Below are positions 6,162-63,225 of a DNA stretch of 64,000 nt, in pieces; within the stretch, counting starts at the first letter, position 1, and the number at the start of each line of letters is the position of its first letter. A program made the position numbers and the translations under genes. The stretch lies in the NCBI GenBank assembly GCA_011526105.1, contig WYAZ01000135.1, positions 83,190 to 147,189 on the forward strand, given 5' to 3'. The stretch comes from Deltaproteobacteria bacterium. Lineage in GTDB: Bacteria > Myxococcota > Kuafuiibacteriia > Kuafuiibacteriales > Kuafuiibacteriaceae. The notes under the pieces were generated by a model. That model was not told where the DNA came from. It was given only the letters and a program-made list of their open reading frames with translations, and ran no database searches.

Positions 6162-9100
6162 TCAGTCGAAGCGAATGTCCAAGAAGTATTGAGGCAGGAT
6201 GCGAGAGTCGATCCAGTGCCCGACCTCGAGATAGTACGTGCCCGGGGCCAGTGCGTTGACCCCTACCCCAGGCGTACTCGCCTCGCTGATCTCGGAGCAT
6301 ACGCTAGAGGTCGGGATCGAGGTGTCGTCGTTCGACGTGATCTCGGTCCCGGCGCTGTCGTACAACGCTAGCCGAGTGTCGATGCCAGTGCACGAGGTTG
6401 GATCGCCCACGTTGCTGTAGGTTCGCGCCACCAGCGCGCGGGTGGCCCCCGCGGGCACGGTGAAGGCGTAGAAGTCGACATCTGCGACGGGGTCGATGCT
6501 CCCGGCGATGGTGCGCGTGGTGGCCGTCACCGCCCCGCTCGCCTGGGCGCCCGCGATGTCTGAGTTGGGTTCGACCTCGAGGAGCACGTTGCCTTCGAAC
6601 TGGCAGGTGGACGAGCAACCGTCACCGTTGGCGGTGTTGCCATCGTCGCAAGCCTCATTGGCTCGAGACTCGATGCGGCCGTTGCCACACGCGGGATTCA
6701 AGATCGTCACCCGCAACGTCAGTGGTCCGGTTTGGCCGCCCTCGGGGCGAACGACCAGATAGTACGCCCCGGTCGGCAGGTTGCGCGCGAACGCGTCATC
6801 CACCGTGATCTCGGCGCAGTCATTGGCGGCACCAAACGTCTTCCTTCCGCGAAGGGTCACGAGGTCCGCCTCGTAGAGCTCGAGCGCGTTGTCGGAGTCG
6901 CAGCTCGCGCCGCTGGTGGTGGTGGCAGTGATGGTCTGACCGGCCTGAGTGACGTTCACGCGGACGGTTTGGTAGGCGATGTTTGACGGAAGGTTCAGGT
7001 TGGCCACCCCGCTCGGCGGGTTGATGGTCGCCGCGATCTCGAGCTGACAGGTGGCGGAGCAGCCATCGTTGGCATCGGTGTTGCCATCGTCGCACTGCTC
7101 GTTGGTCTCCGCGACACCGTTGCCGCAGATATCGACCGCACGCACCGTCACCCGGAGTTCGTATGGGAAGCTCTGGGTCTCGTCTCCTCGGAAGCCGGTG
7201 GCGACGAAGTACTGCCCCGGGGGGAGGCGAGGATCGGTCGCGAAGGCGGGCTGAGAATGAGCGCACAGCTCGGGGCCGGAGTCGTCGTCGAAGTCCATGG
7301 TGTTGAGGTCGGCGTCTGCCACGTAGATCACGGGGTCGGCGTTCGCAGTGCAGTTCGGGGCGGTGGGGGTGAAGACCGCGGCCTCGATGTAAGCCTCGGC
7401 GGTCAAGGTCACCTCGTAGAACTGAAGGCGTCCGCCCGGGGCGGTGCCGCTGAAGGTCTGGCTCGCGGGCGGGCCACTCAGCGTGCCGACGGGTTCGATG
7501 CGGCAAGTCGCGCTGCAGCCGTCGCCCGGCGTGGTGTTGCCGTCGTCGCACTGCTCGTTGTCCTCGAAGACACCGTTGCCGCAGATGTCGGCTTCGAGCA
7601 GCTTGATCTCGACTTGGTAGGGGAACGTCTGGCCGTCTGTGCCGTAGAAGCCGACGCCGAGGAAGTAGGTGCCTGCTTCGAGGAACGCGGCCGAATCCTC
7701 ATTGGGATCGACGTGCGGACACTCGCCGCTGCCCCCCGCTGCGAAGGTGACTTCAGCGCCGCTGGAGTTGAAGATCGCGATCTCGGCGTCGTCGGCTGGG
7801 CAGGTGGGCATGGACGGGGCAAACAGCTGGGCGTCCACGTACGCATCGGTGGTCACCTCGAGCACGTACAGGCTGTAGTTCAGCGCCTCCGCGGTGCCGG
7901 AGAAGACCTGGGTGCCGGGCGGGCCGGAGATCATGCCTTCGACCTCGAGTTCGCAGGTGGCGGAGCAGCCATCACCGTCGAGCAGGTTGCCGTCGTCACA
8001 CTGTTCGTTGCGCCCCGCTTCCCAGACGGTGTTGCCGCAGCCCGGCGCGATGAGCCGCACGAGCAGGTGGTAGGGACCCGCCTCGAAGCCGCTCACGCGG
8101 ATGTAGTAGGTCCCTGCGGCGAGCTCGGCCGCAGCGAGATCGGAAGCCGGATCGATGATGGAGCAGGCGCCGCTCCCCGAGGGGGCCTCCGCGCCGCTGT
8201 CGTCATCGCTCGTCAGCTCTTCTTCGGCGGCGTTGTAAAGCGTGAGGACGGTGTCCGTCGCGCAGCCGCCTTGACCGTCGCTGGTCTCCGCATAGAGCGA
8301 GTAGCCGGCCGGGACCGTGACGCTGTAGAAGTCGACGTCGCTCGAAGGTTCGAGCGCGCCCTCGACCCCGCCACCCGCGCCGAGGTTCACCGCCGAGGCG
8401 ATGTCGTCGTTGGGTTCCACTTCGGCGATGGTCTGCGCGACGGAGCGAGTCTGCTGGGCGGAACCGCCTCCGCTCGAGGCCGACAGCACGAAGACAGTGC
8501 TCTCGGTGACGTTCTGGGTCATGGTGCCGCTGGCTGCGGCGCTGAAGCCAGCGACCGCGGTTCCATTCGCGGTGAGGGTGAGGGTGGTGGCGTTCTGGGT
8601 GGCCCAAGTGATGGTGACCTCTGCGCTGGCGCCGGTGAAGAATGCGGGCGCGACGGTGAACGTGTCGATGACCGGGGCCGCCTCGGCGGTGACGGTCAGC
8701 GTGCGGGTGTCGACCGCGCTGTCGTTGCGCGCCTCGAGCGTATAGGTCGTGGAGGCCTGAGCGAGGGTGACATCGAAGGTTCCGCTCGCCACATTCGTGG
8801 TCTCTGTGGTGATGACCTCGCTCCCTCGAAGGATTCGCACCTGGTTCGCCCCGGCGGTGATCCACTGAAGAGTGCTGACGCCATTGAGACGTCCCGGATT
8901 CGGATTGGCGGTGAAGGAGATGACCGCGACCGCGTTCGCGTCGAGCGTCACACTCACTTCCTTTGTGGTCGAGCCGTTCGCGTTCTCCGCCTTCAGCGTG
9001 AAGGTCGTGCTCGCGTCGATCGCAGCGCTTTCGACGCTGCCGGTGAGCTCCGTCGAGGCTTCGAGCACGGTGCCGCCCGGCGCGGCGGTGATGGAGACCT

Positions 9101-53478: not shown

Positions 53479-54294
53479 GTGCCGCCCGTGTCGCGGCCCG
53501 AGAGCACATCCGCGTGTCCGAGCTCCGGAGTCGGCCCGAGGCAGATCAGCACCCCCGAGAGCCTGGCGCGCATCGGCCTCGGGCTCTTCTGCACCGGGGT
53601 GCTGGTTCTGACCATGACGCCGCTGCTCATCATCCTCTTGCCGTTTCGGTCGGCGCGCGTTCGGGTCACCAACGTCTTTGGGGTGTGGATCGGCCGCTCG
53701 GTGATGGCCTGCGCGGGATGCCCAGTCACGGTCGAGGGTCGCGAGAACCTGAGTGCGGACCGACCTGCGATCTATGCGTGCAACCACACCTCCACGCTCG
53801 ATGCCTTCACCACCATCTGGCTCACGCCCATGGGAACCGTCGGCGTCGCCAAGAAGGAGGTTCTCTATTACCCCTTCTACGGACAGGCTTGGTGGCTCGC
53901 CGGGCACATCTTCCTCGATCGTGGTCAAAGCGCGCGCGCCAAGGCTTCCCTCACCCGGGCCGCGAAGGTCATCAAGCGACTTGGGCTGCATGTTTGCATT
54001 CTCCCCGAAGGAACCCGCTCCCGAGATGGACGTCTACTCCCATTCAAGAAGGGCATCGTGCATCTCGCGCTCGAGACCAGGCTGCCGATCGTTCCAATGG
54101 TGACCATCGGCGCGCAGGGAACGTGGGACCGAGATGGACTTCGGCTGCGTCCGTCGCCGATTCGCATTGTGTTTCTGCCGCCCATCTCCACGGAGGCCTG
54201 GACGCAGGAGGGGATGAGCGAGCAGATCGACGCGATCCGGCGCCCGTTTCTCGAGACGCTCCCTGCGGGTCAGCAACCTCAACCGTCGAGCTAG
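53479..54294 (+). CDS. plsC: 1-acyl-sn-glycerol-3-phosphate acyltransferase (LPLAT/PlsC family)
   Basis: N-terminal TM helix, HX4D motif (NHTSTLD), FLDRG, and the PEGTRS motif. Confidence 0.8.
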   Translation: MPPVSRPESTSACPSSGVGPRQISTPESLARIGLGLFCTGVLVLTMTPLLIILLPFRSARVRVTNVFGVWIGRSVMACAGCPVTVEGRENLSADRPAIYACNHTSTLDAFTTIWLTPMGTVGVAKKEVLYYPFYGQAWWLAGHIFLDRGQSARAKASLTRAAKVIKRLGLHVCILPEGTRSRDGRLLPFKKGIVHLALETRLPIVPMVTIGAQGTWDRDGLRLRPSPIRIVFLPPISTEAWTQEGMSEQIDAIRRPFLETLPAGQQPQPSS

Positions 54295-55268
54295 GCCGGA
54301 GCGGCCGCGAAGCTCGTCGTGAAGCTCTGGTCGTCGAAGCGATCGAGGCTCTGCTCCCAGCGGTACTGCGGCCACAGGAGGCTCACCGAGCGTTGCTTCG
54401 GCCGATACACCGCGGTGTAGAGCGTTCCGTAACCTTGCTCGTGGCGAGTGCCGAAGGCAGGCGCTTCGAGGAAGCGTTGCACGAACCGGGCTGCGGTCTC
54501 CGTGGGGTCGGAGAGGCGAAGGCTGAGCGTGGAGAGGCGCTCGGCGCTGCGCGTCGCCTTTGCGTACGCGCTCCACTCCACCGCTTCCTGATGGTTCGTG
54601 GCCACGAAGTTGCGCGTGACCTGCGCGCCCCGGTCCGGAGTCACGAACACCGTGGCGTGGTCGACCGAGGCGTCCAAAAGCGTGATGCTGTAGCTCATGT
54701 GCGAGGGAACGCGCTGCAGGACCTCGGTCGCCTCCCCGGTCGTGTCGCAGGTCTCCAGGACGTAACGCAGGATGAGCGGAATGCCGAAGCCGTCCCCCAC
54801 CTGCTTTCGGCCCCCGAACGACAGAGAGACACACAGCCCCGCGTCGTTGACGCCGTCGAGGAGGCCCCATAGACAGTCGCTCATGCCGAGCACCCGCCTT
54901 CTCCAGTGCGTTCGGACGAGCAGCTTCTCCCAAAGCCTCGGAGCGTAGTCGTAGTTTCGCACCAGCATGGGCTCGCTCCGCGTCCACGCTGCCTGTGAAC
55001 ACGCAGTGAGGTACGGAGGCGGGCAGTACAGAGCGAGCCCGCGCGCGGCGAGGTCGGAGCCACCGGCGAGCTCCATCAGCCGCCCATAGGTCTCCATGAG
55101 CTCGGGCATGTGCCTCTGCAACGCGCGCCTCGAAGCGAGGTATGTCGGCCGCGCCCGGTCCCCCTCTTGAAGAAACCACTCGCGGTACTCGGGCCAGGAC
55201 GCCTCGAAGAACCGAGCCCACTTCGGGCCCGGCTTTGGCTCATCGAGCGTGTCGACCACTACCTGCAC
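54291..55268 (-). CDS. Ntn-hydrolase, C45 / linear-amide C-N hydrolase-like (acyltransferase/amidase)
   Basis: A candidate N-terminal-nucleophile Cys sits at about residue 90 (…YCPPPYLTACSQAAW). DGVNDAGLCVSLSF resembles the DG(M/L)NE.GL motif of the C45/choloylglycine-hydrolase families. The family call is moderate. Confidence 0.6.
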   Translation of the reverse strand: MQVVVDTLDEPKPGPKWARFFEASWPEYREWFLQEGDRARPTYLASRRALQRHMPELMETYGRLMELAGGSDLAARGLALYCPPPYLTACSQAAWTRSEPMLVRNYDYAPRLWEKLLVRTHWRRRVLGMSDCLWGLLDGVNDAGLCVSLSFGGRKQVGDGFGIPLILRYVLETCDTTGEATEVLQRVPSHMSYSITLLDASVDHATVFVTPDRGAQVTRNFVATNHQEAVEWSAYAKATRSAERLSTLSLRLSDPTETAARFVQRFLEAPAFGTRHEQGYGTLYTAVYRPKQRSVSLLWPQYRWEQSLDRFDDQSFTTSFAAAPA

Positions 55269-55278
55269 GGGCTTGGTC

Positions 55279-56766
55279 CTAAAGGAGCTTGAAGTTCCCG
55301 GCTTCGGCCACTCGGGTGGCCACGGCGGCTTGCTCTTTGCCGATGGGGGACCACTCGTACTGTGAACGAATGGCCTGCGTCCATTTGCGGGCGCGGTCGG
55401 TCAGCTGGAAGTCGTCCGTCATCAGCCGGCCCGGCGTAATCAAGATCCCGAGGTCAGCCCCCTCGTAGAAGTAGTCTCCGACCTTGCTGATCCGCAGAAA
55501 GAACGCCTCGTCCTCGCTCTCGACCGTGCGTCGGTGGGTCTGCACGCGCACGAAGTCCGCGCCGCCATCCGGCCGCATGCGCCAGACCCCAGAGGGGGGC
55601 GCCTTGGTGATGAGGCCCACCTGATCGGTGACGTGCTTGATGACGAGCTGACCCCAACCGTCGATATACTCCGGTTGTGACCAGCGCTCGTTGAGTTCCT
55701 CCACGTCGAGCTCGAAGTCCACGTCCGAGAACTCGAGCAGGTGAAACAGGAACAAGGGAGCGTCCGCGTGCGCGAAGGCCGCCAGGTTCGTCATGGCGCT
55801 CGCGCCGGTGATCCGCGGGTTCACCTCGCCCAGATAGAGCGTGTTGGTGTCGAGGTCGCGCAAAAAATCGAGCTCGAAGTAGCCGCGGTAGCCGAGCTTG
55901 CGCAGCGACTCGCCGAAGGCCGCGGTCATCTGCCTCGCCTTCTTGCGGACCGCCGCCGGGAAGGACTCCGGAAGGACCTCGTTGCCGCACCAGCCCCCCT
56001 TGTACGGGGTCAGCTCCTTGAAGCCGACCAACTCGGTCATGAGCGGGCCCACGATCGTGCCCTGACGGGTGACGCAGGCCTCGAGCGCGGCGCCACGGCA
56101 CCTTATGCGCTTCATGATCTTTAGCTCGGGGGCCTCGATGATGTCTTTCGAGTGCCGGTCGAAGTCCGCTTCGTTGGAGATGAAGAAGGTGGTGTGTCCG
56201 GAGTCGCCGAACGCAGTTTGGATCACGAGATCGTTGCCGAGTTTGGAGGCGACCTTTCGCAGCTCGTTGTAGTCCTTTACGCGGCCGAGCACGTTGGGGA
56301 CCGAGGCGATGCCGGCTTCATCGCCCAGCCGAGTGGCGGAGATCTTGTTGTCCACCTTGGCCCGCAGCGAGGCGGGCGGAAAGCAAATCTCCAGATCGAG
56401 TTCCTTCGCGATCTCCTCGGTCTTCTCATCGAAGAACAGGAAGACCGATCGGGGCCTCTTGCCCCCCTTCTTGCTCCCTTCGATGAGATCCACCACCGCT
56501 TTGTGCTGAAGGAGGTAGTTGTTGATGTCCTCGATGCTGGTGAAGGGCTCGTGTGTCACCTCGGGCGGCGAGAAGACGTTGGGATGATGTCCATCGAAGC
56601 AGTCGATGTAGTTGATGTATCGAAAGTTACGGACCCACTCATCGATGCCCATCAAGTTGAAGCTGGTCGCGCTCACGAAGAACGTGGGCGTCTCGTTTCG
56701 GTGGAAGTACCGCCGGATGTCCGAGATGCCGTGCAGCTTCTCTCGCTTTTTGGTGTTCTTGCTCAT
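55279..56766 (-). CDS. ATP-grasp superfamily ligase with pre-ATP-grasp N-terminal domain; substrate unknown
   Basis: ATP-grasp Mg/ATP motif …YFELDFLRDLDTNTLYLGEVNPRITGAS… (E-x-N-P-R). The central region has VIQTAFGDSGHTTFFISNEADF. Composition is K/N/F/Y-rich with native GC3-rich codons. Confidence 0.75.
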   Translation of the reverse strand: MSKNTKKREKLHGISDIRRYFHRNETPTFFVSATSFNLMGIDEWVRNFRYINYIDCFDGHHPNVFSPPEVTHEPFTSIEDINNYLLQHKAVVDLIEGSKKGGKRPRSVFLFFDEKTEEIAKELDLEICFPPASLRAKVDNKISATRLGDEAGIASVPNVLGRVKDYNELRKVASKLGNDLVIQTAFGDSGHTTFFISNEADFDRHSKDIIEAPELKIMKRIRCRGAALEACVTRQGTIVGPLMTELVGFKELTPYKGGWCGNEVLPESFPAAVRKKARQMTAAFGESLRKLGYRGYFELDFLRDLDTNTLYLGEVNPRITGASAMTNLAAFAHADAPLFLFHLLEFSDVDFELDVEELNERWSQPEYIDGWGQLVIKHVTDQVGLITKAPPSGVWRMRPDGGADFVRVQTHRRTVESEDEAFFLRISKVGDYFYEGADLGILITPGRLMTDDFQLTDRARKWTQAIRSQYEWSPIGKEQAAVATRVAEAGNFKLL

Positions 56767-56777
56767 CTGTTCTCCTT

Positions 56778-59612
56778 TTATGATGGTCGTTCCGCTTCGA
56801 GTCCTACCGGGGCCTTGAGCCTCGCCAGTGCGCCGAGCACGGAGTCTTTGAAGATTCGAATACCGAGCCCCGGCTTCATGCCGTGGATCTCTTTGACGTC
56901 CAGCGCCAACAGGAAGCTCACGATCTCTTTCGTGATCACCTGGCCCGGGACCAGCACCGGGAAGCCGGGCGGATAGGGCGTGATGAATGAGGCGGAGACG
57001 AGTTCCCGGCGCTCTGCGACGCGGGCCAAGAGCGAAGCATCGAACGGGATGAACTCGCAGGATTCCTCGTCGTAGGCCTGGAAATAGGCGCGGCGGATGT
57101 CTCCTTCGGGGGTGGTGCTCTTGGGGTCAGGCAAGAAGATCCGGTGGAAGCGGCTGAAGTTCGGCAGCGGTGGGAGTTCCTCCGTGAGTGATGCGACCTT
57201 GCGGTCGAAGGCTGCGTGCTCGGCCGCGCTGGCATGCTCGAGTGTGCGCGCGAGGTCGGTCGCGATGTCCGTCAGCACCTTGACGAGGTGAGCGATTGTT
57301 CCTCGGGTCATGCCGATGTGAATCAGGAACAGCACGGTGTTGCGCGACGTCTTGTTAATGTGGATGTCGTACTTGTTCATGAGCAACCCCTTGAAGGAGT
57401 CGCCGTCGTAGCCTGAGCGGCCGACGTGAAGTGTGACGCGGGTGGGGTCGAGCACGAATTCGTCACCCGTCCAAGCATGTTCGACTGGGCCGTGCCGGGT
57501 GATGGGATCCCAATAGCGATGGATGCCCGACGGTCGATGTTCTTCGGGGATCATGTCTTTGGGACCCAGCACTCGGAAGAACCTTTCGAGCAGCGGGTCT
57601 TCGCTGATGCGCTCCCGCAAGGTCATGGCGAGCTCGAAGGACTCGCCGACGAGGTCGAGACCCTCGAGTTCTACTTGGCGGCGACCCACGTCGAGCGAGG
57701 CGAGGATCTGGTAGTTCGGCGACGTCGACGTGTGGGTCATATACGCCTCGTGAAATGGCTCCTCGGCCCGGCGTTCGAACTCGGAGTCGCGCACATGGAT
57801 CATGGAGCCCTGGCGCAGCGAGGTCAGGGTCTTGTGCGTGGACTGCGTGGCGTAGACGCGAACTCGGGCGTGTTCGGGGTCCGGCAGGAGCTGCGCCATC
57901 CATCGCGGGTCGCTCGGCTCGGGCGTGCCAAATGCAGCCCGCCACGCGTCATACGTGGCGCGATAGGCGTCGCTGCGCAGTTCACGCTCCAACCTGCGCG
58001 CCGCGTGCATGGCGGTCCGCTGACGGAGCACCGGCGTGAAGCGGCCGTAGGCGAACCAGGCCTCGTCCCAGAGGAACAAGATGTCGGGCTTGATGGCCAG
58101 GATCTCCTTCATCACCCGGTAGGGGTCGTAGGTGATGCCGTCGAAGGTCACGTTCGTGAGCAGCAACAAGCGGACGCGGTCCAGCTTGCCTGCGGCTTTG
58201 AGTTCGAGGAGTTGACGTTTGATCTCATCGAGCGCGACGCCCCCATACATGGAGTATTCGGGCAGCGGATACGGATCGAGGTAGATGGGTGACGCGCCGG
58301 CCAGGATCACCGCGTAGGGGTGAGACTTGTGACAGTCGTGGGAGAGCAGGACGATGTCGCCCGGCTGGATCAAAGCCTGCATCACGATCTTGTTCGCAGT
58401 GGACGTTCCGTTCGTGACGAAGAAGGTTCGCTCCGAGCCAAAGGCTCGCGCGGCCAACTCCTGCGCTCGCTTGAGTGACCCGGTGGGCTGCAACAAGGAG
58501 TCGAGGCCCCCGGTGGTCGCGGAGGTTTCTGCAAAGAACAGCTGCGATCCGTAGAAGTCGCCGAAGTCACGAATCCACTTGGACTTTGCGATTGTGCGTC
58601 CGCGGGAGACGGGAAGCGCGTGAAACATCCCCGTCGGCTTTTCGCTGTAGCGCCGGAGCGCGTCGAAGAACGGAGTCTCGAAGCGGTCATGCACGCCCTT
58701 CAAGAAGCTCACGTGCTGATCCTGAAGGTCCTCGGCTTGATAGAAGAGCCGACGAAACGGGCTCTCTCCGCGGCCGATCACACTCTCGATGGGGGCGTCG
58801 GTCACGCGGTAGAGGTCGATCTCGGGGCGAAGGTCTTTGAGCAGACGGCCGAGCTCCGCGGTGCGGGCGCCGGGCATCAGAGCGGCGAGTCGATCGCGAT
58901 CTTCACCCAGGAGGTGATACAGGGGCTCGAGCAGGTCCGCGTCCGCATTGCCGGAGAACGGAAAGCTGTAGCGCGTGACGACGGCTGCGATGCCGGGATT
59001 GGCGAGCACCGCGAGGACGGCGTCCTCGAAGCTGCGTGCGACCACCAGTTCATAGATGAAGCGATCGTTGTCGCGCCGGAAGCCTCGGAGCTGCTGGCGG
59101 AGCTCCCGCTCTTCCTTGATCGAGATGTCATCCACGACCAGCAGTTCGAAGTAGAGACGGTCAGCTTCCTCGACCGGCTCGTCCATGGCCGTTTCCCTGA
59201 TGCCCACGCCGTCCCCAGTGAGGAAGTCGAGGTAGTCGTGGGCTCGGACCGAGGCCAGGTCGAGGCGCCGATACGCACCTGAGCTGCGCAGACGCGCGAC
59301 GCGTATGGAGATGGTGGCCAGGTCCTCGAACTCGCCTTCGTCCAGGAGACGCCCGAGGTGCGCGAGGATCCGCATGCCGGGGAAGGAGAAGTACCCCTCG
59401 AGCTGCTCGAGGAATCCGATGGCCTCCCGGATGCCCGTCTGAAGTAGGTTCGCCGACGCATCCTCGCGCTGGGTGCGCCGAAGCCGGCGGGCCAGGTCGC
59501 GGAGCCGGTTCCAGGTGTCAGCGCGAAGCCGGGCGATGTTGTGCAGGGTGAGCGGGATGGCTGGTGCTCCGCTCGCGTCCAGGGCGCTCAGGGGTGTGCT
59601 TGGTCTCTTCAC
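56778..59612 (-). CDS. large (biodegradative-type) Orn/Lys/Arg decarboxylase, PLP-dependent fold-type I, with N-terminal wing domain
   Basis: 944 aa. PLP-lysine motif YATQSTHKTLTSLRQG (S-x-HK). Length and domain order resemble AdiA/LdcI/SpeF-type decarboxylases. Confidence 0.85.
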   Translation of the reverse strand: MKRPSTPLSALDASGAPAIPLTLHNIARLRADTWNRLRDLARRLRRTQREDASANLLQTGIREAIGFLEQLEGYFSFPGMRILAHLGRLLDEGEFEDLATISIRVARLRSSGAYRRLDLASVRAHDYLDFLTGDGVGIRETAMDEPVEEADRLYFELLVVDDISIKEERELRQQLRGFRRDNDRFIYELVVARSFEDAVLAVLANPGIAAVVTRYSFPFSGNADADLLEPLYHLLGEDRDRLAALMPGARTAELGRLLKDLRPEIDLYRVTDAPIESVIGRGESPFRRLFYQAEDLQDQHVSFLKGVHDRFETPFFDALRRYSEKPTGMFHALPVSRGRTIAKSKWIRDFGDFYGSQLFFAETSATTGGLDSLLQPTGSLKRAQELAARAFGSERTFFVTNGTSTANKIVMQALIQPGDIVLLSHDCHKSHPYAVILAGASPIYLDPYPLPEYSMYGGVALDEIKRQLLELKAAGKLDRVRLLLLTNVTFDGITYDPYRVMKEILAIKPDILFLWDEAWFAYGRFTPVLRQRTAMHAARRLERELRSDAYRATYDAWRAAFGTPEPSDPRWMAQLLPDPEHARVRVYATQSTHKTLTSLRQGSMIHVRDSEFERRAEEPFHEAYMTHTSTSPNYQILASLDVGRRQVELEGLDLVGESFELAMTLRERISEDPLLERFFRVLGPKDMIPEEHRPSGIHRYWDPITRHGPVEHAWTGDEFVLDPTRVTLHVGRSGYDGDSFKGLLMNKYDIHINKTSRNTVLFLIHIGMTRGTIAHLVKVLTDIATDLARTLEHASAAEHAAFDRKVASLTEELPPLPNFSRFHRIFLPDPKSTTPEGDIRRAYFQAYDEESCEFIPFDASLLARVAERRELVSASFITPYPPGFPVLVPGQVITKEIVSFLLALDVKEIHGMKPGLGIRIFKDSVLGALARLKAPVGLEAERPS

Positions 59613-59733
59613 GTGGTCTTCCTTTCGAAGCCGGCGTTCCCTCCGCGCGAGCGAGCCTTCTCAGCGGCCCCAGTGTGGCCAGGAACGTTCACTTGGGAGA
59701 TGTGGTGTCGTCGATGTCGAATGCCGTCGCGCC

Positions 59734-61062
59734 TCACGGAGCGCTCCCGAGGATCTCTTCCCCGATGATGTCGAGTCCGCGGTCGAGGTCCTCGTCGCTG
59801 ATGACCAGCGGTGAGAGGACTCGGATGACGTTCCCGTGCACCCCGGCGGAGATGACGACCAATCCTCGCGCGAGCGCTTGGGATAAGACCCTCGTCGTCA
59901 GCAGCGTGGCCGGCCTCTTCGGATCGCGATCCTCGACGAGCTCCATGCCCACCATGGCGCCGAGCCCGCGAACATCACCCACCGAGGAGCACTTCGATTG
60001 CAGCGCGCGAAATCGCTCGAACACCTTCGCCCCGATTCGTTGGGCTCGCGCGTTGAGCTTTTGCTTCTCCATCAGATCGATGGTGGCGAGGGCAGCGGCG
60101 CAGGCGACCGGATTGCCGCCAAAGGTGCTACCGATGGTGCCGGAGACCGCTGCGTCCATGATCTCTGCGCGCCCGATCACCGCGGAGATGGGCAGTCCGC
60201 CACCCAGAGCCTTGGCCCAAGTGGAGATGTCGGGGGTGACGCCGTAGTGCTGGTAGGCGCCCCAGTGTCCGGTGCGACCAAAACCCGTCTGCACTTCGTC
60301 GAAGATGAGCATGGTGCCGTGTGTATCGCAGATGCGCCGGAGACCTTCGAGGTAGGCCTTGGGTGCAGGGATGAAGCCGCCTTCTCCGAGCACGGGTTCG
60401 ATGATCACCGCGGCGAGGTCTCGAGGCGACACGTGGGTCAACAACGCGGTCTCGAAGCGCGCGAGCTCCCGGTCGACGAAGCTCTGGAGGTCGAGACCGT
60501 CCCCGTCGTGATAGTGATCAGGGAAGGGCAGGCGGTAAATTTCGGGGGCGAAGGGCCCGCACCCCCGCTTGTAGCCAACCTTTGAGGTGAGCGTCATGCC
60601 GAGCAGCGTTCGTCCGTGGAATGCGCCGGAGAAGCAGATGACGCCCGAACGTCCGGTCGCCTGCCTCGCGATCTTGATCGCGTTCTCGACCGCTTCCGCG
60701 CCCGAGTTGAGGAGCATCGCCTTCGTTGCATCACCGTGCGGCAGAAGCTCCACCAAGCGCTCGCAGAGCGCGATGTAAGGCTCGTAAGTGACGACGTGAA
60801 AGCTGGCATGGAGCACCCGCTGCGCCTGCGCGGAGATCGCCTCGATGACTTCGCGCGGCGCGTGACCCGCGTTGGCCACCCCGATGCCGCCGGCAAAGTC
60901 GATCAGTCGCTCGCCCTCGAGGTCGAACAGGTGGGCGCCGGCGCCTCGAGCGACCGTTCGATCCGTGGCCCTCGGAATGCCCACAGGAACCACCCGGTCT
61001 CGTCGCGCGAGCAGGCTGGCCGAGCCCGCAGGGGTCTCCGGGTTTACACCTATGCCGTTCAT
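59734..61062 (-). CDS. class-III aminotransferase (GABA / omega-amine : 2-oxoglutarate transaminase-like)
   Basis: ICFSGAFHGRT, LIFDEVQTGFGRTG, and the PLP-Lys region DISTWAKALGGG. Confidence 0.85.
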   Translation of the reverse strand: MNGIGVNPETPAGSASLLARRDRVVPVGIPRATDRTVARGAGAHLFDLEGERLIDFAGGIGVANAGHAPREVIEAISAQAQRVLHASFHVVTYEPYIALCERLVELLPHGDATKAMLLNSGAEAVENAIKIARQATGRSGVICFSGAFHGRTLLGMTLTSKVGYKRGCGPFAPEIYRLPFPDHYHDGDGLDLQSFVDRELARFETALLTHVSPRDLAAVIIEPVLGEGGFIPAPKAYLEGLRRICDTHGTMLIFDEVQTGFGRTGHWGAYQHYGVTPDISTWAKALGGGLPISAVIGRAEIMDAAVSGTIGSTFGGNPVACAAALATIDLMEKQKLNARAQRIGAKVFERFRALQSKCSSVGDVRGLGAMVGMELVEDRDPKRPATLLTTRVLSQALARGLVVISAGVHGNVIRVLSPLVISDEDLDRGLDIIGEEILGSAP

Positions 61063-61159
61063 GCCGCTATCCTAAAGTGTATCGGTTCGATAAACAAGAC
61101 AAACTGTTCACGACGAATCAGTCCTTGAAATCACCGTTATATTCGAGCATGGTCCCTTT

Positions 61160-61756
61160 GTGAGTGTGCACTCTGCTAAACAGTCGGTCGAACCCCAATC
61201 CGACCTGTTCGAGGCCGAGGTCGGACCTCGCCTGAAGGCCATCCGGGAGCGTTTTGGGCTCTCTCAGCGGGAGCTAGCGCGCCGGGCCGGGGTGACCAAC
61301 GGCACCGTCTCGCAGATCGAACAGGGCCAAGTGAGTCCCTCGATCGCCTCCATGAAGAAGCTGGTCGCAGCTTTGTCCCTGAGTCTCGCCGACTTCTTCA
61401 CCCTCGACCTCGAGCGGATCCGTACCCCATTTCATGCAGCCAGCGAGCTCGTCGAGATTGGGAGTGGAGCGCTCTCGCTGAGACTCGTCGCGGGTCGTGT
61501 TCCCAACCGACATCTTCAGGTCCTGCACGAGCGCTACGCGCCGGGCGCCGACACGGGGTCGGAACTCTTGTCGCATCCGGGTGAAGAGTCGGGCGTCGTG
61601 GTGCGGGGCAACATCAAACTCAGCGTCGGCAACGAAGAGCGGACACTCGGCCCCGGAGACGCCTTCTACTTTGACAGTCGCATTCCACACAGGTTTCGAA
61701 ACGAAGGGGAGGTCGAGTGCGAGATCGTCAGCGCATCGACCCCACCCAGTTTCTAA
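61160..61756 (+). CDS. XRE-family HTH plus C-terminal cupin transcriptional regulator (PuuR-like)
   Basis: HTH LKAIRERFGLSQRELARRAGVTNGTVSQIEQG. The C-terminal cupin segment GEESGVVVRGNIKLSVGNEERTLGPGDAFYFDSRIPHRFRN. Confidence 0.8.
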   Translation: MSVHSAKQSVEPQSDLFEAEVGPRLKAIRERFGLSQRELARRAGVTNGTVSQIEQGQVSPSIASMKKLVAALSLSLADFFTLDLERIRTPFHAASELVEIGSGALSLRLVAGRVPNRHLQVLHERYAPGADTGSELLSHPGEESGVVVRGNIKLSVGNEERTLGPGDAFYFDSRIPHRFRNEGEVECEIVSASTPPSF

Positions 61757-63225
61757 GAGATTGGAGCAGTCCCTTGGCCAAGTTCAACTCAGCGCTCATC
61801 GAGCATTACACAGGATATGCGGGAGGGCGTTTTCTCCCGTCCGCCGGGAAGTCGACCTTCAAGGTGATCGACCCAGCGAGCCAGGAGATCCTGGCCGAAC
61901 TGCCGAGCTTTGGTGGGAGCGAGACCTCGGCCGCGGTCGAGTCCGCGGTCCCTGTCCTCGAGGATCCCGCACCCCTCGAGACTCGAGCTCGCTGGCTCAC
62001 CGAGATCGCCCGCGCGCACGTGGACAACCGCGACGAACTCGGCCGGATCGTCACGCTCGAAAACGGAAAGCCGCTGGCCGAGGCCAAAGGGGAGATCGAC
62101 TACGCCGCTGCCTTCTATCGAGACGCTGCCCAGCGCCTCGACGTCTTGCGCCCTCGCAAGCTCAAAGAGCGACCCAAGGGCTTGGACTGGACGGTGTACT
62201 CGCGGCCGGCTGGCGTCGCCGGGCTGATTACGCCCTGGAACTTCCCGGTGGCGATGCTGGCGAAGAAGCTCTCGGGTGCGATCGCGGCGGGCGCGCCGGC
62301 GGTGGTCAAGCCGGCGGAGAAGACCCCGCTGTCATGCATCGCCTTGTTTCATCTCCTACACCGCTTGGGCCTCCCGCCCGGCATGGTGAACCTCGTGTTT
62401 GGAGACGCACCCGCGATCGGACGTGTGCTGTGTGAACATCCGGCGGTCAGGGTGTTGAGCTTCACCGGTTCCACCGCGGTCGGGAAGCTGCTGTCCGCCC
62501 AGGCCGCGCCCCATCTGAAGCGCATGTCGCTCGAGCTCGGCGGCAACGCGCCGTTCATCGTGTTCGACGACGCGGACTTGGATCTCGCGGCGGACCAGCT
62601 GATGACCAGCAAGTTTCGAGCGACCGGGCAGACCTGCGTCTGCGCGAACCGAGTGTTCGTGCAGGATTCAATCGCGGCGGCGTTCACGGACCGGGTGGTG
62701 GAGCGGGTGCGTGCGCTCCAGGTTGGGCACGGCCTCGAAGAAGGAGTCACGGTCGGTCCGCTCATCGATCTCGCGGCCTTTCAGAAGGTTTCCAGCCTCG
62801 TCGACGATGCACTCGGGGCCGGAGCCCAGGCCCTGACGGGCGGCCGCACGCCTCCGCCGGCGCCGGACAAGGGGTGCTTCTTTCCGCCCACCGTGCTCAC
62901 CGGCGTTCGAAAGGGCATGCGTATCCTCGGCGAGGAGGCCTTTGGGCCGACCGTGCCGATCGCTCGCTTTACCGAGGAGTCAGAGATCGTGCGAATCGCC
63001 AACGACACCGAGTACGGCCTCGCGGCCTATGTGTTCACCCGCGATCCCGCGCGCGCGGAGCGGGTGATTTCGCGCCTGCGTTTTGGGCACGTCGGCCTCA
63101 ACAGCGGTACTGGTCCCACCCCCGAGGCTCCGTTTGGTGGGATGAAGCACTCGGGCCTCGGCCGGGAAGGTGGAGAAGAGGGCCTGCTCGAGTACGTCGA
63201 GCTTCAGACCGTTCCGCATCCGTAG
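61717..63225 (+). CDS. NAD(P)-dependent aldehyde dehydrogenase (succinate-semialdehyde / aminoaldehyde dehydrogenase-like)
   Basis: ITPWNFPVAM, ELGGNAPFIVFDDADL (catalytic Glu), and GQTCVCANRVFV (catalytic Cys). The start is uncertain; it overlaps the regulator gene by about 40 nt. Confidence 0.85.
   Translation: MRDRQRIDPTQFLRDWSSPLAKFNSALIEHYTGYAGGRFLPSAGKSTFKVIDPASQEILAELPSFGGSETSAAVESAVPVLEDPAPLETRARWLTEIARAHVDNRDELGRIVTLENGKPLAEAKGEIDYAAAFYRDAAQRLDVLRPRKLKERPKGLDWTVYSRPAGVAGLITPWNFPVAMLAKKLSGAIAAGAPAVVKPAEKTPLSCIALFHLLHRLGLPPGMVNLVFGDAPAIGRVLCEHPAVRVLSFTGSTAVGKLLSAQAAPHLKRMSLELGGNAPFIVFDDADLDLAADQLMTSKFRATGQTCVCANRVFVQDSIAAAFTDRVVERVRALQVGHGLEEGVTVGPLIDLAAFQKVSSLVDDALGAGAQALTGGRTPPPAPDKGCFFPPTVLTGVRKGMRILGEEAFGPTVPIARFTEESEIVRIANDTEYGLAAYVFTRDPARAERVISRLRFGHVGLNSGTGPTPEAPFGGMKHSGLGREGGEEGLLEYVELQTVPHP

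Follow-up and report, generated by a model that had tools for sequence, protein, structure and literature searches.

The window analysed here, the whole stretch of 64,000 nucleotides from contig WYAZ01000135.1 of a deltaproteobacterium assigned to the Myxococcota, contains a locus of six genes. Four run in one direction and encode an aminotransferase, a long-form pyridoxal 5'-phosphate (PLP) decarboxylase, an ATP-grasp enzyme and a C45-family N-terminal-nucleophile (Ntn) hydrolase, and two, divergent from these, encode a transcription regulator and an aldehyde dehydrogenase (ALDH). Judged by homology, conserved residues and gene context, the locus probably combines the core of a gamma-aminobutyrate (GABA) shunt with a ligase/hydrolase side-branch that would act on a gamma-glutamyl or gamma-aminobutyryl conjugate; the GABA-shunt core, taken by itself, is very likely. 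The pathway type is known, and is met here with a very recently recognised decarboxylase family; what is new is a conserved module of ATP-grasp and C45 genes, in many genomes together with a CN-hydrolase gene.

In the proposed scheme the decarboxylase would convert L-glutamate to GABA and CO2, the GabT-type transaminase would pass the amino group of GABA to 2-oxoglutarate, yielding succinate semialdehyde, and the divergently encoded succinate-semialdehyde dehydrogenase (SSADH) would turn this into succinate. The ATP-grasp enzyme would spend ATP on forming an amide between a carboxyl group, either the gamma-carboxyl of glutamate or that of GABA, and an amino group supplied by a common metabolite, and the Cys-Ntn enzyme of the C45 family would cleave or transfer the omega-linked acyl group of the conjugate so formed. 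The two would thereby constitute a conjugate side-branch of glutamate/GABA metabolism; in most other lineages a Nit2-like CN-hydrolase accompanies the pair. The XRE-cupin regulator presumably controls both transcription units, responding to a metabolite of the pathway as its likely ligand.

A gene unit conserved across phyla

A scan for the ATP-grasp gene in one genome per GTDB species confirmed at least 570 stretches that encode it, and synteny was counted by tblastn of the window proteins in the best 80 of these (57-72% identity in the ATP-grasp protein). The 80 loci come from at least 11 phyla, including the Myxococcota, Planctomycetota, Acidobacteriota, Bacteroidota and their relatives, Chloroflexota, Alpha-, Beta- and Gammaproteobacteria, Verrucomicrobiota, Deinococcota, Sumerlaeota and Melainabacteria, among others, and many carriers of the ATP-grasp gene are marine or halophilic. 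The decarboxylase gene is found in 74 loci, in 61 of them immediately upstream of the ATP-grasp gene, and the C45 gene in 72, in 71 of them immediately downstream (11 loci stop too early to be tested). A GabT-like aminotransferase is encoded in 42 loci and an SSADH close to that of the window in 23. Recurrence of this arrangement in at least 11 phyla puts the linkage far beyond chance. The claim that the genes form one unit thus holds: in most of the 80 loci the decarboxylase, ATP-grasp and C45 genes are direct neighbours, and a lack of co-conservation is refuted.

Clustering all open reading frames (ORFs) of these loci brought out one further member, a Nit2-like CN-hydrolase (PF00795), which tblastn detects in 63 of the 80. 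As a rule its gene stands between the aminotransferase and decarboxylase genes (e.g. 6168-7058 in locus L002), so that the canonical order reads (SSADH), gabT, CN-hydrolase, decarboxylase, ATP-grasp, C45, (SSADH); in Bacteroidota loci a second, SSADH-like gene stands between the ATP-grasp and C45 genes. The window has no tblastn match to the CN-hydrolase, and none lies between aminotransferase and decarboxylase in the closest locus, from the Polyangiaceae. The best solved relative of the CN-hydrolase is the mouse omega-amidase Nit2 (2w1v, E 1e-21), yet when compared with Nit1/Nit2 (deaminated-glutathione amidase/omega-amidase) the proteins of the related loci fall far below every curated cutoff. 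As it is usually encoded next to the transaminase, its substrate may be a 2-oxoglutaryl or succinyl amide, which it would hydrolyse. Among the ORF clusters of the 80 loci no other enzyme and no dedicated exporter is conserved.

Ten loci, mostly from Bacteroidota (L034, L045, L048, L054, L058, L060, L062, L072, L076 and L077), also carry, just upstream of the decarboxylase gene, a gene for a protein of about 139 amino acids with a faint glyoxalase/bleomycin-resistance-like match (E 8e-4). In several of these loci the C45 protein has a C-terminal extension of about 80-100 amino acids.

A probable long-form glutamate decarboxylase

The decarboxylase of the window matches Rv2531c of Mycobacterium tuberculosis (PDB 9n0n/9n0o) with an E-value of 2.3e-232 (phmmer), residues 25-934 of the query aligning to residues 21-906 of the chain. 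It has the Rv2531c-type architecture, i.e. four domains in about 940 amino acids, including an extra N-terminal domain, with homology over the full length; the Rv2531c type belongs to the KOR-decarboxylase superfamily (IPR000310). LdcI-, AdiA- and SpeF-type structures match at 1e-28 to 1e-55 only, and in the core domain only. Assignment as a lysine, ornithine or arginine decarboxylase was rejected, the scores being far under the curated cutoffs (LdcC 211/968, AdiA 174/1167 and SpeF 150/1310 bits).

Rv2531c, structures of which are available (9N0N/9N0O/9N0P; PMC12329521), was reported in a 2026 PNAS paper to be inactive on lysine, ornithine and arginine and to decarboxylate L-glutamate in vitro, in a Mg2+-dependent reaction with a K0.5 of 509 mM, a Hill coefficient of 4 and hysteresis (PMC13506015). 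Its deletion removes 84% of cellular GABA and abolishes all labelling from glutamate to GABA, the enzyme feeding the GABA shunt of M. tuberculosis, and its sequence cluster takes in Myxococcus and Enhygromyxa (PMC13506015). Modelling and mutagenesis led to the proposal that R576, T606, R718 and N731 select for glutamate (PMC13506015). In a pairwise alignment H428/K429, the PLP-binding K594, R600, T630 and N753 of the window enzyme equal H405/K406, K570, R576, T606 and N731 of Rv2531c, the match at K429 being shown by this pairwise alignment. When the window enzyme was aligned with 64 homologues linked to the ATP-grasp gene (65 sequences), H428, K594 and the equivalents of R576 and N731 were invariant in all 65, and the equivalent of T606 was threonine in 63. 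The window enzyme is therefore predicted to be an L-glutamate decarboxylase making GABA and not an enzyme for lysine, ornithine or arginine. It shares with the M. tuberculosis system its architecture, its active-site residues and the downstream logic from glutamate through GABA to succinate, and differs in that its gene is embedded in an operon with gabT, ATP-grasp and C45 genes.

Related decarboxylases also occur without the pair of ATP-grasp and C45 genes. On a plasmid of Ensifer adhaerens (L094, 4945-11408) such a stand-alone gene has an AspT-family antiporter gene on each side, and on a plasmid of Rhodobacter sp. CZR27 (L096, 6857-13173) two AspT-family antiporter genes lie downstream of it. 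AspT-family antiporters, of the aspartate:alanine-antiporter type, are the transporters of decarboxylation/antiport systems for acidic amino acids. The two loci resemble such a system, possibly one exchanging glutamate for GABA, and there appears to be no earlier description of the arrangement. The two papers on Rv2531c make no mention of operons or gene neighbourhoods (PMC13506015, PMC12329521). A literature search on SMa0680/0682 of S. meliloti turned up expression notes on "Orn/Lys/Arg decarboxylases" only.

The long-form glutamate decarboxylase family has been recognised only in 2026, and the locus and its relatives lend independent genomic support to that assignment because of the linkage to gabT and SSADH genes, to glutamate transporters and to AspT-type antiporters. 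Outside the mycobacteria, in most bacteria, the decarboxylase is accompanied by two or three enzymes that are apparently unstudied.

Transaminase, dehydrogenase and regulator

The best solved relatives of the aminotransferase are GabT of Escherichia coli (1sf2, E 1e-109) and PuuE (9e-107). Aligned to 1sf2, it is identical at all eight of the active-site residues compared, which bind substrate or cofactor in E. coli GabT (I50, R141, E211, D239, Q242, K268, T297 and R398). Retention of R141 and R398, which bind the carboxylate, argues for free GABA as the substrate rather than an amide of GABA. For the ALDH, nine solved relatives have an E-value of 1e-100 or better, and eight of them carry the name SSADH, led by 3rh9 (1e-170); E. 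coli GabD (3jz4) matches at 9e-121. Both proteins would thus be ordinary GabT- and SSADH-type enzymes of a GABA shunt. The regulator has a PuuR-like architecture (an XRE-type helix-turn-helix domain with a cupin), as the original prediction had it, but is not a PuuR equivalog by its score (NF007408, 152 bits against a cutoff of 211). The same regulator occupies the same position in L001-L003, and a homologue follows the C45 gene in L067. The 97-nucleotide spacer between the divergent units gave no Rfam match above noise and no convincing promoter, the promoter and terminator scans staying at background; an operator-like palindrome was sought there and not found, the sole inverted repeat lying inside the regulator ORF.

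These results bear on the pathway that had been proposed for the locus, a counterpart of the E. coli putrescine-utilisation (Puu) pathway in which an AdiA/LdcI/SpeF-type decarboxylase acting on lysine, ornithine or arginine would make a di- or polyamine, the ATP-grasp enzyme would conjugate it, the transaminase and ALDH would oxidise the conjugate in place of PuuB and PuuC, and the C45 enzyme would release the product. One can see its appeal: the decarboxylase does belong to the OKR_DC_1 superfamily, the regulator is built like PuuR, the enzyme classes can be matched to the Puu steps, and the two have in common, as an idea, that an ATP-dependent amide ligase and an amide hydrolase flank transaminase/ALDH chemistry ending in GABA and succinate. 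Nevertheless we consider this pathway highly improbable. The decarboxylase belongs to the Rv2531c subfamily, whose characterised member is active on L-glutamate and inactive on the three basic amino acids, and the proposed glutamate-recognition residues are conserved. The amine source would then be glutamate and not putrescine, and free GABA and succinate semialdehyde look to be the specific substrates of the transaminase and ALDH. The enzyme families peculiar to Puu are missing from the six proteins, there being no matches to PuuA (glutamine-synthetase-like), PuuB (a FAD oxidase) or PuuD (a class-I GATase) and only a distant ALDH match to PuuC (257/850 bits), and the genomic contexts concern glutamate, not polyamines. 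What remains plausible of the earlier proposal is its logic of an amide ligase paired with an amide hydrolase, whereas a polyamine conjugate is unsupported.

The closer likeness is to the E. coli gabDT and puuE/puuR genes, with which the locus shares a GabT/PuuE-type transaminase, a GabD-type SSADH and an XRE-cupin regulator of PuuR architecture. It differs from them in that GABA would be made in situ by a decarboxylase unrelated to GadA/B, in the absence of a GabP permease, and in the presence of two extra enzymes.

The ATP-grasp and C45 enzymes

The ATP-grasp protein passes the NF005096 (PRK06524) equivalog model with 753.3 bits (cutoff 684) over residues 4-488 of its 495. Databases automatically name this family "biotin carboxylase", and to our knowledge it has no characterised member; a literature search for the PRK06524 family, or for ATP-grasp combined with C45 (with or without decarboxylase or CN-hydrolase), found nothing relevant. 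That the protein is a genuine biotin carboxylase is almost certainly wrong. Apart from the NCBIfam name, there are weak matches to the biotin-carboxylase domains of pyruvate and propionyl-CoA carboxylases, whereas the models for genuine AccC and pyruvate carboxylase give 21-32 bits against cutoffs of about 600-1100 (TIGR00514, 23.5/626.5), identity to biotin-carboxylase structures is 12-13%, and neither a biotin carrier (BCCP) nor a carboxyltransferase is among the families conserved in the 80 loci. Comparison by hidden Markov models and by fold likewise places the protein outside RimK, Ddl, GshB and other housekeeping clades, which upholds this part of the original prediction.

A fold search found no close relative; its best matches include the gamma-glutamyl-dipeptide ligase BesA. 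Identity to PylC, BesA, PGM1, PurK and biotin-carboxylase domains is 11-14%, and the window protein, as a member of the separate family NF005096, differs from all of these in a unique beta-rich C-terminal region (approximately residues 350-475). A check for gene fusions found homologues of 565-775 amino acids without a recognisable extra Pfam domain. A small LysW-like carrier ORF was also sought in the locus, where the intergenic gaps of 10, 11 and 121 nucleotides are too small for one.

The hydrolase scores 163 bits with NF040521 (cutoff 85) and matches PF03417 at 1.9e-32. Sequence searches found no solved relatives; the AF2 model (pLDDT 92) has as its best Foldseek match isopenicillin-N acyltransferase (IAT; 2x1c, E 4e-14, TM 0.69), which ranks ahead of the C59 bile-salt hydrolases. 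Together with the NF040521 score this bears out its assignment to C45 rather than to C59 or DmpA. Two alignments, of 53 and of 30 sequences with the window protein included, show Cys90 without variation; it is the predicted nucleophile, with residues 1-89 as the predicted pro-segment. In both its fold and its N-terminal pro-segment followed by an invariant cysteine the protein is like the Penicillium IAT, from which it differs in that identity is about 14% and no acyl-CoA-forming enzyme is encoded nearby; the residue before the nucleophile is Ala89, and in IAT it is glycine. IAT cleaves a delta-(alpha-aminoadipoyl) amide. Tan of Drosophila, another C45 enzyme, hydrolyses beta-alanyl-dopamine and carcinine, i.e. 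omega-aminoacyl amides (PMC1285064). Two characterised C45 enzymes thus cleave omega-linked aminoacyl amides, which are close analogues of gamma-aminobutyryl and gamma-glutamyl amides. We tentatively propose, as a possibility falling a little short of even, that the pair consists of an ATP-dependent amide ligase and a Cys-Ntn amidohydrolase or transferase, both acting on a gamma-glutamyl or gamma-aminobutyryl conjugate.

Neighbours of the pair in other genomes

The gene neighbourhoods in other bacteria point in the same metabolic direction. Plasmids of Shinella, Roseateles and Sinorhizobium sp. RAC02 carry the ATP-grasp/C45 pair inside a cluster for the route from arginine/ornithine to GABA, without a long-form decarboxylase (e.g. 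L087, Shinella plasmid NZ_CP132312.1, 3403-15930; also L088 and L092). This cluster encodes an amino-acid permease, a USP protein, an agmatinase-family ureohydrolase, an aminobutyraldehyde-type ALDH, a D-amino-acid dehydrogenase, an Orr-like racemase, RidA and an AruI-like 5-guanidino-2-oxopentanoate decarboxylase of the thiamine-diphosphate type (737 bits, cutoff 500), and a CN-hydrolase gene lies divergently upstream. As the three loci are more than 90% identical, they amount to one evolutionary observation. The trio of CN-hydrolase, ATP-grasp and C45 genes persists even without the decarboxylase gene: in Aquisalimonas it lies beside PutA (proline to glutamate), and its neighbours in Polaromonas are genes for a MocR regulator of GabR-type architecture and a peptide-type ABC transporter. 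Where the decarboxylase is present, one finds hut genes (histidine to glutamate) nearby in Bradyrhizobium, a glutamate-type dehydrogenase (GDH) nearby in Rhizobium, and in Chondrinema an APC permease gene inserted between the decarboxylase and ATP-grasp genes. In Cupriavidus basilensis, Burkholderia sp. NLJ2 and bacterium YEK0313 (L098, L100 and L102) the order CN-hydrolase, decarboxylase, ATP-grasp, C45 is followed by genes for an SDF-family (GltP/DctA) symporter and an amino-acid-binding protein of the SBP_bac_3 type; a dCache histidine kinase and a sigma-54 activator are encoded nearby in C. basilensis and YEK0313, the former of which has a MocR regulator as well. Neighbours of the glutamate family, combined with the lack of any other conserved enzyme or exporter, indicate that the pair works on common intracellular metabolites of this family.

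As an observation in its own right, the layout with kinase and activator in L098 and L102 recalls uptake regulons for acidic amino acids; all three carriers, that of L100 included, are cultured strains, suited to genetics.

Another possibility is a biosynthetic branch, in which the ATP-grasp enzyme would ligate GABA from the decarboxylase to an amino acid or amine to give a homocarnosine-like osmolyte, buffer or signal, with the C45 enzyme as the hydrolase for its turnover. The pair does follow two unrelated GABA-producing routes, GABA is also a substrate of animal carnosine synthase, itself an ATP-grasp enzyme, Tan hydrolyses beta-alanyl amines, and the marine or halophilic habit of many carriers would suit such a product. 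We nonetheless judge this very unlikely: the precursor would be drained away by the GabT and SSADH that the operon itself encodes, and neither an exporter nor a further tailoring gene is conserved in the 80 loci. We know of no GABA-containing dipeptide-like compound from these bacteria.

A further possibility would have the pair and the CN-hydrolase open or repair, at the expense of ATP, amides or lactams that arise as side products of glutamate and GABA (5-oxoproline, 2-pyrrolidone or the lactam of 2-oxoglutaramate), with the Ntn and nitrilase-type enzymes as hydrolases and the ATP-grasp protein as an activator that phosphorylates or carboxylates in the manner of PurK. This, too, is quite unlikely, as an ATP-grasp lactamase is without precedent, the window and its myxobacterial relatives lack the CN-hydrolase, and the fold matches of the ATP-grasp protein to amide ligases are equally good.

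Weighing the proposed function

Several observations weigh against the combined interpretation of a GABA-shunt core with a conjugate side-branch. Identity between the window decarboxylase and Rv2531c is only about 44%, and the equivalent of R718 is a lysine, K741 (lysine in 52 and arginine in 13 of the 65 aligned enzymes). The K0.5 of Rv2531c for free glutamate leaves room for another physiological substrate. At five positions (323, 634, 643, 738 and 815 of the window enzyme) at least 95% of the ATP-grasp-linked decarboxylases have S, Y, G, D and P, whereas the stand-alone enzymes of M. tuberculosis, Ensifer and Rhodobacter have A, Q, A, Y/T and H/D; two of these adjoin the T606 and R718 active-site loops (Y634 versus Q and D738 versus Y/T), so that the substrate of the linked enzymes could differ subtly. 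(An unlinked decarboxylase copy in Roseateles, whose genome also has an ATP-grasp/C45 pair, is of the linked type at four of the five positions, all except S323.) The aminotransferase stays below its curated cutoffs, narrowly for TIGR00700 (484.6/506.65 bits) and more widely for NF005376 (493.7/676 bits), and the ALDH clearly misses that for SSADH (TIGR01780, 491 against 646 bits). Since the regulator, too, clearly misses the PuuR equivalog cutoff, all three are assignments at the family level, backed by residues and context. Comparison of folds cannot separate an amide ligase from a PurK-like carboxylase for the ATP-grasp protein. Finally, if one operon encodes both the making and the hydrolysis of the same bond, a futile cycle results unless the conjugate is altered in between.

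A rival model is decarboxylation on a carrier. The ATP-grasp enzyme would make a gamma-glutamyl-X compound as the true substrate of the decarboxylase, and the C45 enzyme, with the CN-hydrolase where present, would free GABA or succinate and regenerate X. Such a model fits the extremely conserved and tightly spaced order of decarboxylase, ATP-grasp and C45 genes, the unphysiological requirement of Rv2531c for free glutamate and its hysteresis, the presence of BesA among the best fold matches, the cleavage of an omega-linked acidic aminoacyl amide by the C45 archetype IAT, and the differences between linked and stand-alone decarboxylases beside the active-site loops. Several facts nevertheless make it unlikely. 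The arginine proposed to bind the free gamma-carboxylate (the equivalent of R576) is as invariant in the linked enzymes as in that of M. tuberculosis; the Ensifer decarboxylase has no adjacent pair, and the Rv2531c gene is not known to have ATP-grasp/C45-type neighbours; the pair occurs without the decarboxylase beside the arginine/ornithine route to GABA and in Polaromonas; and the cost would be one ATP per GABA with no evident gain.

A broader proposal, which we regard as rather unlikely, is that the ATP-grasp and C45 genes, usually with the Nit2-like amidase, constitute an unrecognised module of many phyla that makes and processes a gamma-glutamyl or gamma-aminobutyryl amide; in the strongest form of this proposal, long-form decarboxylases would normally act on or with this conjugate. 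The strongest form would explain why the isolated M. tuberculosis enzyme needs about 0.5 M free glutamate. We favour a pair that acts beside or after free glutamate and GABA, because the R576-equivalent arginine is invariant in the linked decarboxylases just as in the partner-less M. tuberculosis enzyme, and because the pair also adjoins a GABA-forming route without a long-form decarboxylase.

The ATP-grasp family has thousands of members, 57-72% identical across phyla among the closest relatives, and is mis-annotated as "biotin carboxylase" throughout. Solving the function of the pair would correct this annotation, could reveal a new glutamate or GABA conjugate, and might explain the odd kinetics of the decarboxylase.

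Layout of the locus

All six ORFs are present exactly where the original prediction had placed them and with the same spacing, and their family labels are upheld by Pfam and NCBIfam (Table 1). The same genes are called independently on identical public contigs, the operon being closed by a convergent gene for a PlsC-type acyltransferase.

Table 1. Features of the locus, with positions in the window
Feature	Position	Strand	Length	Family or basis
PlsC-type acyltransferase gene, convergent, at operon end	53479-54294	+		PF01553
C45-family Ntn amidohydrolase/acyltransferase proenzyme	54291-55268	-	325 aa	PF03417/NF040521
ATP-grasp enzyme, presumed carboxylate-amine ligase	55279-56766	-	495 aa	NCBIfam NF005096
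Long-form (four-domain) PLP decarboxylase, Rv2531c subfamily, predicted L-glutamate decarboxylase	56778-59612	-	944 aa	PF01276 OKR_DC_1
GabT-type 4-aminobutyrate:2-oxoglutarate aminotransferase	59734-61062	-	442 aa	PF00202 Aminotran_3
Divergent intergenic spacer separating the gabT-led operon from the regulator/SSADH pair, putative control region	61063-61159	.	97 nt	Role suggested by position only
XRE-HTH + cupin transcription regulator	61160-61756	+	198 aa	HTH_3 + Cupin_2
GabD-type succinate-semialdehyde dehydrogenase (ALDH)	61717-63225	+	502 aa	PF00171 Aldedh

The gap between the decarboxylase and ATP-grasp genes is 11 nucleotides (56767-56777, sequence AAGGAGAACAG) and contains an AAGGAG ribosome-binding site directly 5' of the ATP-grasp ATG; that between the ATP-grasp and C45 genes is 10 nucleotides (55269-55278). 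Gaps this short suggest translational coupling of the three genes, and co-transcription of the gabT-led operon is presumed. The claimed overlap of 40 nucleotides between the regulator and ALDH genes is there in longest-ORF calls, but is doubtful and perhaps an artefact of such calls. With an in-frame TTG at 61774 as start codon, which has GGAG six bases upstream, the ALDH gene would begin 17 nucleotides past the regulator stop, and homology to solved SSADHs begins only at residue 23; the true ALDH start may be this TTG.

Composition changes locally between positions 56000 and 57500 of the window: G+C content falls to about 0.59, from about 0.65 in the surroundings, and a positive GC skew extends from the 3' part of the decarboxylase gene into the start of the ATP-grasp gene. 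The 3' end of the PlsC-type gene overlaps that of the C45 gene by 4 nucleotides, with no sign that it belongs to the module; a lysophospholipid acyltransferase gene is also found near the pair-bearing clusters of Shinella and Roseateles.

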